Below, in pieces: positions 4,153 through 8,831 of a stretch of DNA of 13,605 nucleotides (the first letter of the stretch is position 1; the number at the start of each line of letters is the position of its first letter). Where the stretch lies: NCBI GenBank assembly GCA_048938025.1, contig JBHLMP010000012.1:1-13605 (forward strand), in the 5' to 3' direction. The position numbers were made by a program, and so were the translations under genes. The notes beneath the pieces were generated by a model. The model did not search any database. It was not told the origin of the DNA and saw nothing but the letters and a program-made list of their open reading frames with translations. The DNA is from Promethearchaeota archaeon (GTDB taxonomy: Archaea; Asgardarchaeota; Lokiarchaeia; Sigyniarchaeales; SOKP01).

Positions 4153-4599
4153 ATGAAAAAAAAAATCTTAGTTGCTGGAACTTTCGATATTTTGCATCCA
4201 GGACATATTTTTCTGATAAATGAAGCGGCAAAATTAGGTGATGTATATATTGTAATAGCTACTGACAAAAATCGAGAATTATATTCTGGAGAAGCTCCAA
4301 TTGTGCCTGAGCAACAAAGATTTGAAGTGATGAAAAGTATAAAAAATGTAAAAGATGTAATATTAGGACGACATGATAATGATACACTTAGAACAGTTGA
4401 AGAGATCAATCCAGATATTATACTTCTAGGACCGGATCAAAAATTTAGCGCTCAAAAACTTCAAAATGCTCTTAAAATGAAAGGATTGAATCATATAGAG
4501 GTAAGAAGATTAGAAAAATATTATGATAAATTCAAATTACACAGCTCTAGTCTTATTAAAAAGAAAATATTTGAAAAATATAAGAAGAATCATTCATAA
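4153..4599 (+). CDS. ribL: FAD synthase (archaeal RibL, cytidylyltransferase-like family)
   Basis: GTFDILHPGH (HxGH), PIVPEQQR, PDIILLGPDQ and C-terminal SSSLI; lies directly upstream of the riboflavin kinase. Confidence 0.85.
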   Translation: MKKKILVAGTFDILHPGHIFLINEAAKLGDVYIVIATDKNRELYSGEAPIVPEQQRFEVMKSIKNVKDVILGRHDNDTLRTVEEINPDIILLGPDQKFSAQKLQNALKMKGLNHIEVRRLEKYYDKFKLHSSSLIKKKIFEKYKKNHS

Positions 4600-4609
4600 A
4601 ACTGTAAAT

Positions 4610-5320
4610 ATGTCAGAAGAAAACGAAATTTCACCGGAAAACTATGCAAATTGGTTTGCGTTATATCATTTATGCCAAAATATAGGTAATCAAAAAGCTA
4701 TTCATATTAGTAGTGTAGAATTTGGAAAAGTATTAAATTTGTCTCAACAGACAGCATCAAGAAGGATTAATACCTTAGAAGAAATTGGATGGATTGAGAG
4801 GAAGATTGAAGCAAAAGAGCAAATAATTAGAATAACTAAAAAAGGTGCTGATGCAATACTTGCAATGTATAAAAGTTTAAAACAAATTCTAGAAAGTATC
4901 TTAATTGTAGGGGAGGTTACTACTGGGATAGGAGAGGGTCATTATTATGTCAAAATTAAAAACTATTTTAAGCAGTTTCAAGAAAAACTGAGATTTATTC
5001 CCTTTTTTGGAACATTAAATCTCCAACTAAGCGATCTTAACTATGAATTATTAATGGAAAATTTAAAAAATCGAATCCCTGTTAAAATCGATGGATTTAA
5101 AGATGTCGAGGAGGGACGGACTTTCGGTTCAGTTGATTGTTATTATTGTTTTGTCTCTCGTTTAGATAATCAAGAAAAAAAAATAAATGCAGCAATATTA
5201 AAAATTAAAAGAACACACCATAAGAAAAATATTGTTGAGATCTTAGCAGAACCTTATTTAAGAGATATATTGAATTTACATGATAGTGATAGAGTAAGGA
5301 TTGAATTAATAAAAGAATAA
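4610..5320 (+). CDS. ribK: CTP-dependent riboflavin kinase with N-terminal winged HTH (RbkR-type bifunctional regulator)
   Basis: N-terminal wHTH (SQQTASRRINTLEEIGWIER..IRITKKG), then GEGHYY, GTLN, RTFG, RTHH and EILA..LRDILNLHDSD. ATG at 4610, 10 nt after the ribL stop, preferred over 4523, which overlaps ribL. Confidence 0.92.
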   Translation: MSEENEISPENYANWFALYHLCQNIGNQKAIHISSVEFGKVLNLSQQTASRRINTLEEIGWIERKIEAKEQIIRITKKGADAILAMYKSLKQILESILIVGEVTTGIGEGHYYVKIKNYFKQFQEKLRFIPFFGTLNLQLSDLNYELLMENLKNRIPVKIDGFKDVEEGRTFGSVDCYYCFVSRLDNQEKKINAAILKIKRTHHKKNIVEILAEPYLRDILNLHDSDRVRIELIKE

Positions 5321-7384: not shown

Positions 7385-7777
7385 TTATTCTCTTATAAAA
7401 ATAGTATCAAAACTCTCTCCAATAGCTCGAGCAATCTTGAACAATTCTTTTTCGTTAAAATTATTTAATAATTGCTCGTCATTTAAATCCTTTAACATTA
7501 TTAATCTCTCTGTTTTAACACCCGATTTTTCAGAAAACTCTTCTAATTCATCCAATGTTTTACCTCCTAATATATCTTTAATTATAGGTTCAAAATAGAA
7601 AATTTCCTCTATTGTTTTATCAAAAATTTCTGCAATTTTTAGAGATAATGTTAAGGAAGGATTATATGATCCTTTCTCTAAAAAATAAATAGTTTGGCGA
7701 GAAACACCTACTAAGTCAGCTAATTCTTGCTGTTTAAGATTTCTCTCATCTCTCAGTTCTTTTATCCTTGTAACCAA
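7385..7777 (-). CDS. XRE/Cro-C1 (HTH_3) transcriptional regulator with C-terminal degenerate second HTH
   Basis: RIKELR...QQELADLVGVSRQTIYFLEKGSYNPSLTLSLKIAEIF is a canonical XRE HTH; TTG start. Confidence 0.92.
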   Translation of the reverse strand: MVTRIKELRDERNLKQQELADLVGVSRQTIYFLEKGSYNPSLTLSLKIAEIFDKTIEEIFYFEPIIKDILGGKTLDELEEFSEKSGVKTERLIMLKDLNDEQLLNNFNEKELFKIARAIGESFDTIFIRE

Positions 7778-7860
7778 TTTCTTCCTAAATTTCAGTGTTT
7801 CCTAACCTATTTAATATTGTATTTAAATTAAAAATAAAATAAGAAAATAAAAACTTAAAA

Positions 7861-8709
7861 TTAAACCATTTTAAAAAGATCTTCGATTCTACAATTCAAT
7901 ATTTCAGCAATTTTATATGCTAATGTTAAACTAGGATTATATCTACCTTCTTCCAAATAATTTATGGTTTGAATGGGGACTCCTACTTTTTCAGCTAATT
8001 GAGCAGTTGACATATTATTCTTTTCTCTCAATTCTTTTATTGATGTCTTTAATTTTTCCCCTTCTCGCATTTTTGAGAGAATATAGCTAATGAAGTTATC
8101 AAATGCGAGCTCTTCAGGTTTGAATATTTTATCTTCTAATCCAGAGGGTACAGCAGAATATTTTGTCATCATTTCTTTTATTTTATTTTCGATGATATAG
8201 GGTTCTTTGAGACCTGGGATATATCCCTCTGGTCGTAAGATGCCCTTTTGAGCACTTGAAACAGCAGCAGCTGATCCAGCAGTTTCGATCTTAACTGTAA
8301 ATGTTTTAAACATTCTATCAAAAACACCATTTGCTATGTTAATATTTTGAATTCGACTATAAGGAACAGTTGCTCTCACTTGTGTAAAAACACCATGATT
8401 AATAACTATGTTATCTTCTGATATTTTGTAAGAGAATTTATGTACATAAGCGGTGTAATACCAAATTTGGATTATCATTATTATTGTAAATGGAATTATA
8501 AATACAAATAAAATTACTAATAATATCACAATGTTAGTGAAATTTTCAGGATTAATTCCATCATCAGTAACAGCAACCCAAGAAAGGTACATTGCTAATG
8601 TAGTAGCTGCACTAAGTATCAAAAGAAAAATTAATCCCCCCTTTAATACTTCTTTATTTCTATAACTGTTAGAAATCGTCCCTTCGTATGAAAAATTTTC
8701 TTTATTCAT
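7861..8709 (-). CDS. Membrane protein: 2 TM + bacterial PH domain (bPH_2/YdbS-like) fused to C-terminal XRE HTH
   Basis: Two hydrophobic helices, then YKISEDNIVINHGVFTQVRATVPYSRIQNINIANGVFDRMFKTFTVKIETAG (bPH_2 pattern), then IKELRE...LAEKVGV..QTINYLEEGRYNPSLTLAYKIA. GGAGG SD at 8720-8716, 6 nt before the ATG. Confidence 0.9.
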   Translation of the reverse strand: MNKENFSYEGTISNSYRNKEVLKGGLIFLLILSAATTLAMYLSWVAVTDDGINPENFTNIVILLVILFVFIIPFTIIMIIQIWYYTAYVHKFSYKISEDNIVINHGVFTQVRATVPYSRIQNINIANGVFDRMFKTFTVKIETAGSAAAVSSAQKGILRPEGYIPGLKEPYIIENKIKEMMTKYSAVPSGLEDKIFKPEELAFDNFISYILSKMREGEKLKTSIKELREKNNMSTAQLAEKVGVPIQTINYLEEGRYNPSLTLAYKIAEILNCRIEDLFKMV

Positions 8710-8747
8710 TTTTTTCCTCCTTTTTTTTAAAAAATTTTAATTCATTC

Positions 8748-8769
8748 TATGTTAAATAAACTTAACATA
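8748..8769. promoter_or_regulatory. Palindromic operator 1 (TATGTTAA-N6-TTAACATA)
   Basis: Perfect 8-bp inverted repeat with 6-nt spacer, lying between the TATA box and the start of the PH-HTH gene. Confidence 0.8.
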
Positions 8770-8771
8770 AA

Positions 8772-8779
8772 TATTTAAA
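8772..8779 (-). promoter_or_regulatory. TATA box for the PH-HTH/HTH module
   Basis: TTTAAATA on the minus strand, preceded by an A-rich BRE-like stretch and immediately upstream of operator 1. Confidence 0.55.
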
Positions 8780-8813
8780 TGTTTTGATCTTTGAAAAATC
8801 TCAATTTAAAAGC

Positions 8814-8831
8814 GTTAATAAAACTTAACAT
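8814..8831. promoter_or_regulatory. Palindromic operator 2 (GTTAA-N6-TTAACAT)
   Basis: Same core and spacer length as operator 1, both share AAACTTAACAT; offset is exactly 63 bp. Confidence 0.7.

Follow-up and report, generated by a model that had tools for sequence, protein, structure and literature searches.

A membrane-tethered CylR2-type domain and its soluble paralogue form a conserved gene pair and candidate titration switch in Asgard archaea

Why would a membrane protein carry a helix-turn-helix (HTH) domain at its C-terminal end while the next gene encodes a soluble protein with a paralogous HTH? The question is raised by two genes in a 13,605-nucleotide (nt) stretch of DNA, here called the window, which comprises positions 1 to 13,605 of contig JBHLMP010000012.1 in assembly GCA_048938025.1 of a Promethearchaeota archaeon. 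The original prediction, made from the letters of the window, held that the tethered HTH of the membrane protein (hereafter F) is a degenerate decoy that forms heterodimers with a soluble XRE-type repressor (hereafter S) and so controls an autoregulated promoter. We find that F and S form a real, conserved, and uncharacterized module, a variant of the known themes of the membrane-tethered regulator and of repressor titration; the mechanism first proposed for it is plausible but unproven. No description of a bPH_2+HTH fusion was found in the literature searched.

The predicted architecture of F, a single open reading frame (ORF) with two transmembrane (TM) helices, a bPH_2 domain, and an XRE-type HTH, is borne out by Pfam and AlphaFold2 (table 1). 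Residues 91-148 match bPH_2 (PF03703) with an E-value of 1.6e-16 and 60.7 bits against a cut-off of 22, and residues 224-278 match HTH_3 (PF01381) with an E-value of 7.2e-16 and 58.4 bits against a cut-off of 23. In an AlphaFold2 model built on an alignment of 62 sequences (mean predicted local distance difference test [pLDDT] of 79.2; predicted TM-score of 0.57), two long helices at residues 15-48 and 59-91 precede the PH fold and a five-helix HTH lies at the C-terminal end. The PH domain is modeled as strands between residues 93 and 167 capped by a helix at 170-185, with a pLDDT of 86-91 and a low-confidence loop at 147-157; its Foldseek matches to the bacterial PH structures 3dcx, 3hsa, and 3b77 have weak E-values of 4e-3 to 3e-2. 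The loop that joins the two TM helices (residues 46-58) is acidic, with no K/R and three D/E, and the N-terminus of F is basic, with four K/R. These charges suggest a hairpin with the N-terminus inside, and both the PH domain and the HTH should be on the cytoplasmic side of the membrane.

The best conserved region of either protein is neither of the named domains of F, but the 34-residue linker between them. Over the 52 loci in which F and S are both complete, mean pairwise identity is 0.917 in the linker, 0.361 in the N-terminus and TM helices of F, 0.675 in its PH domain, and 0.745 in its HTH, compared with 0.679 in the HTH of S and 0.45 in the C-terminal domain of S. Most alignment columns of the linker are at least 95% conserved, and it matches no Pfam family. 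Its presence was correctly predicted. Its description as helical was not, because the model has a single helix (residues 200-213) and a pLDDT below 50 at residues 188-197 and 199-206. Every fused relative examined has the linker motif along with the HTH, and YdbS-like relatives that have no HTH (P0148, P0157, P0159, and P0166) lack it. A region this conserved yet modeled with such low confidence is suggestive of a binding or switch element.

The same two features would also suit a recognition or cleavage site, and F could then be a latent membrane-anchored factor in which a signal at the TM/PH module exposes the linker to a protease and the freed HTH acts alone or as a heterodimer with S. Certain XRE repressors are cut by dedicated proteases, DdrO by IrrE and ImmR by ImmA, and DdrO structures are among the Foldseek fold matches of S. 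However, only F and S are syntenic and no protease gene is conserved beside them, no cleavage motif was identified, and 34 residues at ∼92% identity exceed what a cleavage site usually needs. We regard release by proteolysis, the alternative named in the original prediction, as quite unlikely.

Fusion of the two domains is a property of the family. A search of 5.8 billion clustered proteins yielded 455 relatives of F with E-values of 1e-3 or less, and among the matches listed 121 of 121, with lengths of 213-294 amino acids, have both PF03703 and PF01381. The original prediction had considered that homologues might always be split into two genes; those listed are all fused. Of 1.84 billion representatives clustered at 50% identity, 28 match at E-values of 1e-30 or less and ∼20 of these have the full architecture; beyond the fused family, matching representatives are mostly multi-bPH_2 proteins of ∼350-890 amino acids or short single-domain proteins. 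In the ESM Atlas, a single cluster combines the two families; its 61 members are all Archaea and most often Promethearchaeota. Complete F ORFs of 260-300 amino acids are present in 53 independent genome loci and in the window. The domain co-occurrence, the independent complete ORFs, and the conservation of the linker, which is the junction itself, refute the idea that F arose from a YdbS-like gene and an XRE gene through a lost stop codon or a misassembly. Nothing was found in favor of such an artifact, and we give it practically no weight even though YdbS-like relatives with no HTH and one truncated F (locus L058) exist.

Pairing with S is equally a property of the family. A scan of one genome per species identified 61 loci, labeled Promethearchaeota/Promethearchaeia, Hod-, Hermod-, Thor-, or Odinarchaeota, or "uncultured archaeon." F is 55-95% identical across the 57 loci in which the match covers most of the protein (best tblastn segment); the other four have lower or partial matches (L053 and L054, at a contig end; L059, 53%; L058, 52% and truncated). 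A full-length S is directly 3' of F on the same strand in 55 of 61 loci. The remaining six are L003 and L027, with a partial S at a contig end, L053, L054, and L059, which end inside F, and L058, with its truncated F and no S. Flanking genes are common only to close relatives (an NYN gene in 2 of 61 loci, a 254-amino acid ORF in eight, and a zinc-ribbon gene in ten), and no conserved neighborhood beyond the F-S pair was found in the 61 loci. Because S stays with F while the flanking genes differ, the pair is the conserved unit. The module appears to be restricted to Asgard archaea, because every organism named in the sources is an Asgard archaeon if one sets aside the nonspecific labels "archaeon" and marine sediment metagenome and a single partial record labeled "Bathyarchaeota." Labels of the closest relatives of F are Promethearchaeota and Hodarchaeota.

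Two loci deviate in structure. In L058 (4001-4621; protein P0138), an F-like ORF stops after ...IPSGL at 182-183 amino acids, with no HTH and no S within 4 kb, while the tblastn match continues past the stop into the linker region; the gene is a copy in decay or else a derivative without the HTH. In L005 (3974-6243), F is followed in tandem by a second F-like copy (42% identity; ORF broken inside the HTH) and then by S.

The spread of the pair also bears on whether it is a toxin-antitoxin, defense, or mobile-element cassette, in which the membrane protein would be the effector and the XRE proteins the antitoxin or controller. XRE-type HTHs are frequent among antitoxins and controller proteins, and in NCBIfam and PADLOC there are sub-threshold matches to HipB, RstR, capH, and control proteins. 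But these matches are HTH-only, falling within F residues 215-281 or the HTH of S and far below curated cut-offs, and the non-HTH parts of F and S match no component of a PADLOC defense system. A level of identity as high as that of F over 57 loci of several Asgard lineages, the differing chromosomal contexts beside housekeeping genes, and the lack of integrase, repeat, or toxin domains near the pair in the window also argue against a cassette, which we consider very improbable.

The second gene encodes a soluble XRE protein, as predicted, with a start that had to be moved. S was first listed as 7385-7777 on the reverse strand with a TTG start, and residues 5-59 of that version match HTH_3 (E-value of 2.8e-20; 72.5 bits against a cut-off of 23). 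Every one of the 56 S sequences compared keeps a peptide x-K-F-[K/R]-K-K 5' of the listed TTG, with synonymous codon changes, and a GGTGAG-like motif precedes the conserved start position. In the window, an in-frame stop is three codons upstream of a CTG at this position. The added residues are modeled as a beta strand (residues 2-9; pLDDT of ∼95) that pairs with residues 66-70, and public homologues of 139 amino acids align to 100% of the longer query. The conserved upstream peptide, the modeled strand, and the full-length coverage by homologues indicate that S almost certainly starts six codons further upstream, at the CTG, and has 136 amino acids; the public record of the S of the window begins at the TTG, residue 7 of this protein. 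Across the 56 sequences the start codon is CTG in 24, ATG in 12, TTG in 12, GTG in five, TTA in two, and ATA in one. The start is thus non-AUG in 44 of 56 loci, and a family-wide preference of this kind, with CTG the commonest codon, is unusual in itself. Loci with no ATG, GTG, or TTG start for S had raised the idea that stop-codon read-through joins F to S. It was ruled out because the frame relation between F and S varies (0, 1, or 2) and one conserved start position accounts for the data.

The model of S has a pLDDT of 95.7, and its C-terminal helices (residues 71-132; pLDDT above 90) are packed on the HTH. No Pfam family matched this C-terminal domain. Compared with the profile of the F HTH in hhalign, it has a probability of 89% and an E-value of 2.3e-6 over 42 columns; as a repeat of the HTH of S itself it has a probability of only 7%, and this candidate was rejected. 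The domain may be a degenerate second HTH-like repeat packed on the first, which we offer as a lead only. Upstream of S, a T-run of ∼7-13 directly 3' of the F stop codon is present in most of 56 loci and looks like an archaeal terminator, and in the window the octamer TTTAAATA in the spacer ends 24 nt before the CTG. The T-runs and the octamer suggest that S may be transcribed from a promoter of its own, with a very short leader, following putative termination after F.

How, then, do the two HTHs relate, and which of them is equipped to bind DNA? BLASTP aligns them with 34 identities in 60 positions (E-value of 3e-19), one more than the 33 counted by hand in the original prediction, and YNPSLTL and KIAEI are common to both. 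Searched against the PDB, a profile of 38 S sequences has DR_2454 (9k3w; E-value of 2.8e-18) and CylR2 (1utx; 1e-17) as matches, and the F HTH finds the same two proteins with phmmer (1.2e-14 and 4.2e-13, respectively). In Foldseek, the S model matches CylR2 with a TM-score of 0.88 and 45% identity, and the F HTH has TM-scores of 0.86-0.90 to these two structures and of 0.86-0.88 to CylR2. Like CylR2, S has beta strands that flank the HTH (residues 5-9 and 66-70). By profile and by modeled fold, both HTHs are CylR2-type.

Their DNA-facing residues differ. The third helix of both CylR2 and DR_2454 reads V-S-R-Q-T-I-N, and the recognition helix of S keeps S-R-Q-T in 56 of 56 sequences, a feature from which F departs. 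Q22, S32, R33, Q34, T35, and Y37 are invariant in S, which also has a basic N-terminal arm (K2 in 51 of 56 and K5 in 46 of 56) that F does not. In the 54 F orthologues compared, position 245 is P in 53, position 246 is I, L, V, or T and never R or K, and position 235 is A, V, T, or M and never Q. At position 247, Q predominates (41 sequences), with E in nine, N in three, and R in one; T248 and I249 are invariant. DNA-facing positions of F are therefore apolar (235, 245, and 246) or relatively variable (235, 246, 247, and 250), and the rest of the domain is nearly fixed. These positions probably align with the DNA-contact residues of the 434 repressor.

The original prediction had read these differences (STAQLA in F for KQQELA in S; GVPIQT for GVSRQT) as the loss of DNA-contact residues from a degenerate domain. 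The replacement of S-R by P-I is real relative to CylR2 and DR_2454, and the motifs are as described. Degeneracy is not supported: because the F HTH is more conserved than that of S (0.745 vs. 0.679), it appears specialized and is not decaying, with P-[I/L/V] at the S-R positions as a fixed family trait. Such strong constraint implies that the F HTH has a function.

More distant fused relatives provide a point of comparison. A search with one of them, P0131, returned 119 matches. In this type-2 subfamily, the named sources include Promethearchaeum syntrophicum (P0315), Lokiarchaeum ossiferum (NEF87_000538; P0321), Heimdallarchaeota, Sigynarchaeum, Hodarchaeota, and the one partial "Bathyarchaeota" record. 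Most type-2 proteins inspected (P0131, P0139, P0140, P0147, P0168, P0283, P0287, and P0321) have V-[S/T]-R-Q-T-I or a close variant in the recognition helix; the exceptions are P0315, with V-S-R-T-T-V, and P0290 and P0300, with V-S-E-T-T-L. All those inspected keep the linker motif. Because type-2 fusions retain the canonical helix, the tethered HTH probably began as a DNA binder. In a tree of HTHs, all 56 S domains form one clade (support of 0.86) beside the type-2 domains, which is only a hint because the alignment has ∼63 columns. In the distant fused proteins P0141, P0146, and P0152, a hydrophobic insert, probably two more TM helices, replaces an Ala/Ser-rich loop of the PH domain.

The upstream region of F has a candidate target. 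The operator noticed in the original prediction (O1, table 1) is a perfect palindrome, and its position beside a putative TATA box is conserved. With at most one mismatch allowed, ATGTWA-N7-8-TWACAT begins 0-6 nt after TTTAWATA in 37 of 54 upstream regions, and a site of this kind is present anywhere in 42 of 54, compared with a mean of 6.8 and a maximum of 13 in 200 mononucleotide shuffles. The octamer TTTAAATA precedes the palindrome in most related loci as well, and GGAGG or GGTGA is at a place equivalent to that of the Shine-Dalgarno-like motif of the window. A second operator-like site in the window (O2) has a counterpart in related loci in the form of a half-site-like element, but at a different position. 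Archaeal repressors that block polymerase recruitment usually sit directly downstream of the TATA box. Since this is where the operator is located, autoregulation of the F promoter is a fair inference. The invariance of the S recognition helix across loci with a common half-site favors S as the protein that binds it.

Two extensions of the operator analysis were rejected. At up to three mismatches, the O1 pattern has eight matches in the window against 5.0 expected; only O1 and O2, the two promoter sites, stand out, and a regulon inside the window is rejected. Covariation of Q247E in F with operator type is inconsistent, as L024 has E247 with a canonical operator and L022, L029, L035, and L056 have E247 with no canonical site. 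Separately, three-mismatch matches at 7648-7667 and 7923-7942 on the forward strand fall in the paralogous YNPSLTL codons of the two HTHs and are most simply a by-product of paralogy.

If S binds the operator, F could still bind DNA on its own. F would then be a transmembrane regulator with specificity shifted by P-[I/L/V], and S a second regulator that competes or cooperates with it at the same or a neighboring site, with no sequestration. BcrR, an XRE-type HTH fused to TM helices, is a precedent for a tethered HTH. Transmembrane transcription regulators (TTRs) occur widely among bacteria and archaea according to a census (PMC10269533), and F has what defines them, a predicted TM region and a DNA-binding domain in one polypeptide (two hydrophobic helices and HTH_3). 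The main text of the census (PMC10269533) has no mention of XRE, bPH, or Asgard, and its supplementary tables may list such proteins. ArnR and ArnR1 are membrane-bound factors of archaea (PMC6396743). The high HTH_3 score of F, the conservation of its HTH beyond that of S, the large retention of Q247, T248, and I249, the canonical recognition helix in type-2 fusions, and the presence of two operator-like sites in the window are all consistent with DNA binding by F. Nevertheless, binding from the membrane in the manner of a TTR would depend on a predicted domain in which DNA-facing residues are altered: positions that are polar or basic in S and in solved relatives are apolar in F (235 and 246 in 54 of 54; P245 in 53 of 54), Glu occupies 247 in nine of 54, and the basic arm is missing. 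Moreover, the operator half-site is broadly conserved while residues 246, 247, and 250 of F vary, and the strict retention of a soluble paralogue is left with no explanation. F also differs from TTRs such as ToxR, CadC, BcrR, and ArnR/ArnR1, in which the DNA-binding domain is usually N-terminal and the sole output; in F the HTH is C-terminal, after bPH_2, and always comes with a soluble paralogue. In our judgment, DNA binding by F from the membrane is somewhat unlikely.

The alternative is that the F HTH binds S. CylR2 dimerizes via its HTH domain, and heterodimerization of F and S is reasonable because both domains are CylR2-type. CylR2 has been termed a homodimeric protein (PMC3042103). Complex prediction for F residues 170-282 with full-length S yielded a median score of 0.51 (0.49, 0.54, and 0.51), and the best of three controls scored 0.00. 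Between runs, at least 69% of contacts recur, and partner pLDDT is at least 85. Of 80 solved complexes, 58 reach the mark used for complexes, as do two of 110 mismatched pairs; these counts hold only roughly here as custom alignments were the input. We take the prediction as weak support for F-S binding.

From the observed architecture, conservation, paralogy, residue pattern, and operator conservation, we tentatively suggest that S is an autorepressor and that the tethered HTH of F titrates it, a reading that we hold to be possible rather than likely. A dimer of S would bind ATGTWA-N7-8-TWACAT abutting the TATA box of F and repress the module, and probably distant targets too. The F HTH, in which two or three DNA-facing residues are now apolar and the rest of the domain is kept, would pair with S via the CylR2-type dimer surface and retain it at the membrane. 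The TM/PH module and the linker would decide whether the tethered HTH is free to capture S, and a membrane-level signal would lead to derepression without phosphorylation. Titration best explains together the strict pairing, the apolar or variable DNA-facing positions of F, the basic arm and invariant helix of S, and the non-AUG start of S, and for this reason we prefer it. The non-AUG start fits a tightly limited dosage of S, as a titration switch needs.

Several points weigh against titration. The protein that binds the operator, contact between F and S, the direction of the switch, and the signal are parts of the scheme that we infer. The type-2 fusions with V-[S/T]-R-Q-T-I indicate that DNA-competent tethered HTHs exist, and F may differ from them in specificity; F itself keeps Q247 in 41 of 54 sequences and T248 and I249 in all of them. 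Apolar residues can also contact DNA. The two operator-like sites in the window could each serve a different protein. As the most conserved element, most of which is modeled with low confidence, the linker may signal another partner or cleavage. As for the complex prediction, it gave a score without an interface, and 0.51 falls in a band that is more often wrong than right: scores of 0.60 or less comprise only seven of the 80 solved complexes and both of the mismatched pairs that passed. The score may also reflect likeness rather than binding, because CylR2 homodimers have already been solved. Of the decoy heterodimer originally proposed, the architecture, the pairing, the TATA-adjacent palindrome, the altered residues of F, and the CylR2-type kinship stand and the complex prediction adds weak support; the decoy role itself stays hypothetical, given the type-2 proteins with their canonical helix.

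A fuller version of the titration scheme would see in the module an Asgard device that works without phosphorylation, in which a PH-domain membrane sensor has a DNA-blind version of the dimerization domain of its own repressor built into it. The linker would be the switch that conceals or bares this decoy, and a membrane signal would thereby titrate a dosage-limited S off a TATA-proximal operator. The type-2 form would be ancestral and DNA-binding, and the type in the window would have arisen by duplication and division of labor. Taken as a whole, this version is somewhat unlikely.

Comparison with studied systems places the module more precisely. CylR2 binds an inverted repeat as a homodimer; the candidate counterpart in the present module is the conserved TATA-adjacent palindrome. 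By analogy, the closest studied system is CylR1/CylR2, nearer than the SdpI/SdpR pair invoked in the original prediction. CylR1 and CylR2 belong to the cytolysin operon of Enterococcus faecalis, in which a membrane protein is needed for the response of the CylR2 repressor to a peptide signal by an unknown mechanism, and published models show the two in contact (PMC3709268). The binding of CylR2 to its promoter has been determined precisely in vitro (PMC3709268). As with F and S, the genes of a small XRE repressor and a membrane protein are neighbors, and no kinase takes part. The membrane proteins are set apart by their descriptions, since CylR1 is described as a small protein that lacks an HTH and for which three TM helices are predicted (PMC3709268), and F has a two-helix hairpin, bPH_2, and a CylR2-type HTH of its own. 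In addition, S has an extra C-terminal domain relative to CylR2, and F and S are archaeal with a TATA-box promoter.

In the SdpI/SdpR pair of Bacillus subtilis, a soluble autorepressor is taken off DNA by capture at the membrane, and Mlc/PtsG is similar. The likeness to the scheme proposed for F and S is one of logic only, so the parallel drawn originally is kept as analogy; the systems are not homologous. S is an XRE and not an ArsR-type protein, F has no SdpI domain, and SdpI has no copy of the repressor domain; Pfam reports XRE-type families for S, with sub-threshold matches at the HTH level only, and bPH_2 for F, but no SdpI or ArsR family. SinR, SlrR, and SinI of B. subtilis resemble F and S in another respect: a soluble XRE repressor whose C-terminal domain is helical comes under control when a paralogue pairs with it. 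The SinR structures 1b0n and 3zkc are among the Foldseek matches of S, and S scores only 18.2 bits with the NCBIfam SlrR model, whose cut-off is 250. Pairing of SinR with its partners involves the C-terminal domain, and none of them is known to be membrane-bound. Finally, YdbS and YdbT of Firmicutes have the same plan as F residues 1-185, a hairpin of two TM helices and bPH_2, but proteins of this type have neither a DNA-binding domain nor the conserved linker of F. The literature treats ydbS and ydbT in connection with the sigma-W regulon and leaderless-bacteriocin transport (PMC3498285, PMC8657885).

Coordinates of the features are collected in table 1. Other genes of the window encode a threonyl-tRNA synthetase with an archaea-specific editing domain, a Translin-family protein, the PheRS alpha subunit, and a CTP-dependent riboflavin kinase. 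The riboflavin kinase domain is in an ORF at 4523-5320 on the forward strand that also has a MarR-type winged helix; a cytidylyltransferase-like ORF (4153-4599, forward strand) overlaps it by 77 nt, which suggests that the listed start of the 4523-5320 ORF is too far upstream.

Table 1. Features of the F-S locus, in coordinates of the window.
Feature	Position	Strand	Basis or remark
Gene F, 282-amino acid membrane protein: two-TM hairpin, bPH_2, linker, and CylR2-type XRE HTH	7861..8709	-	ORF, Pfam, AlphaFold2
F TM helix 1, residues ∼25-45	8575..8637	-	Hydrophobic run inside AlphaFold2 helix 15-48
F TM helix 2, residues ∼59-83	8461..8535	-	Hydrophobic run inside AlphaFold2 helix 59-91
F bacterial PH domain, residues 91-185	8155..8439	-	Pfam PF03703, AlphaFold2, Foldseek
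F linker, residues 186-219	8053..8154	-	Conservation; AlphaFold2
F C-terminal CylR2-type HTH, residues 220-282	7864..8052	-	Pfam HTH_3, phmmer against PDB, Foldseek
Gene S, soluble 136-amino acid XRE protein	7385..7795	-	Start at CTG 7793-7795, not at the ORF-finder TTG 7775-7777
S basic N-terminal strand and CylR2-type HTH, residues 1-70	7586..7795	-	Profile against PDB; Foldseek
S C-terminal helical domain, residues 71-136	7388..7585	-	AlphaFold2; hhalign
F-S intergenic spacer, 65 nt	7796..7860	-	T-runs right after the F stop; TTTAAATA at 7820-7827
Shine-Dalgarno-like GGAGG	8716..8720	-	Precedes the F start codon by 6 nt
Operator O1, perfect palindrome ATGTTAA-N6-TTAACAT	8749..8768		0 mismatches; TATA box 3 nt upstream
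Putative TATA box TTTAAATA of F	8772..8779	-	70 nt upstream of the ATG; promoter function inferred
Operator-like site O2	8812..8831		Deviates from the O1 pattern by 2 mismatches; its start is 63 bp from that of O1

Asgard archaea are the closest prokaryotic relatives of eukaryotes, and experimental knowledge of how they couple the membrane to transcription is almost nil. The F-S module offers an entry point because it is small, strongly conserved, and has a clear candidate operator, and the presence of the type-2 form in proteins attributed to the cultured Promethearchaeum syntrophicum and Lokiarchaeum ossiferum makes direct testing possible. If S is titrated by F, the pair would be a new design among the few membrane-sequestration switches and might illuminate the mechanism of CylR1/CylR2. 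If instead F binds DNA, it would be a clean archaeal case of transcription control from the membrane. Either way, the ultra-conserved linker with its low model confidence marks an interaction site worth mapping.

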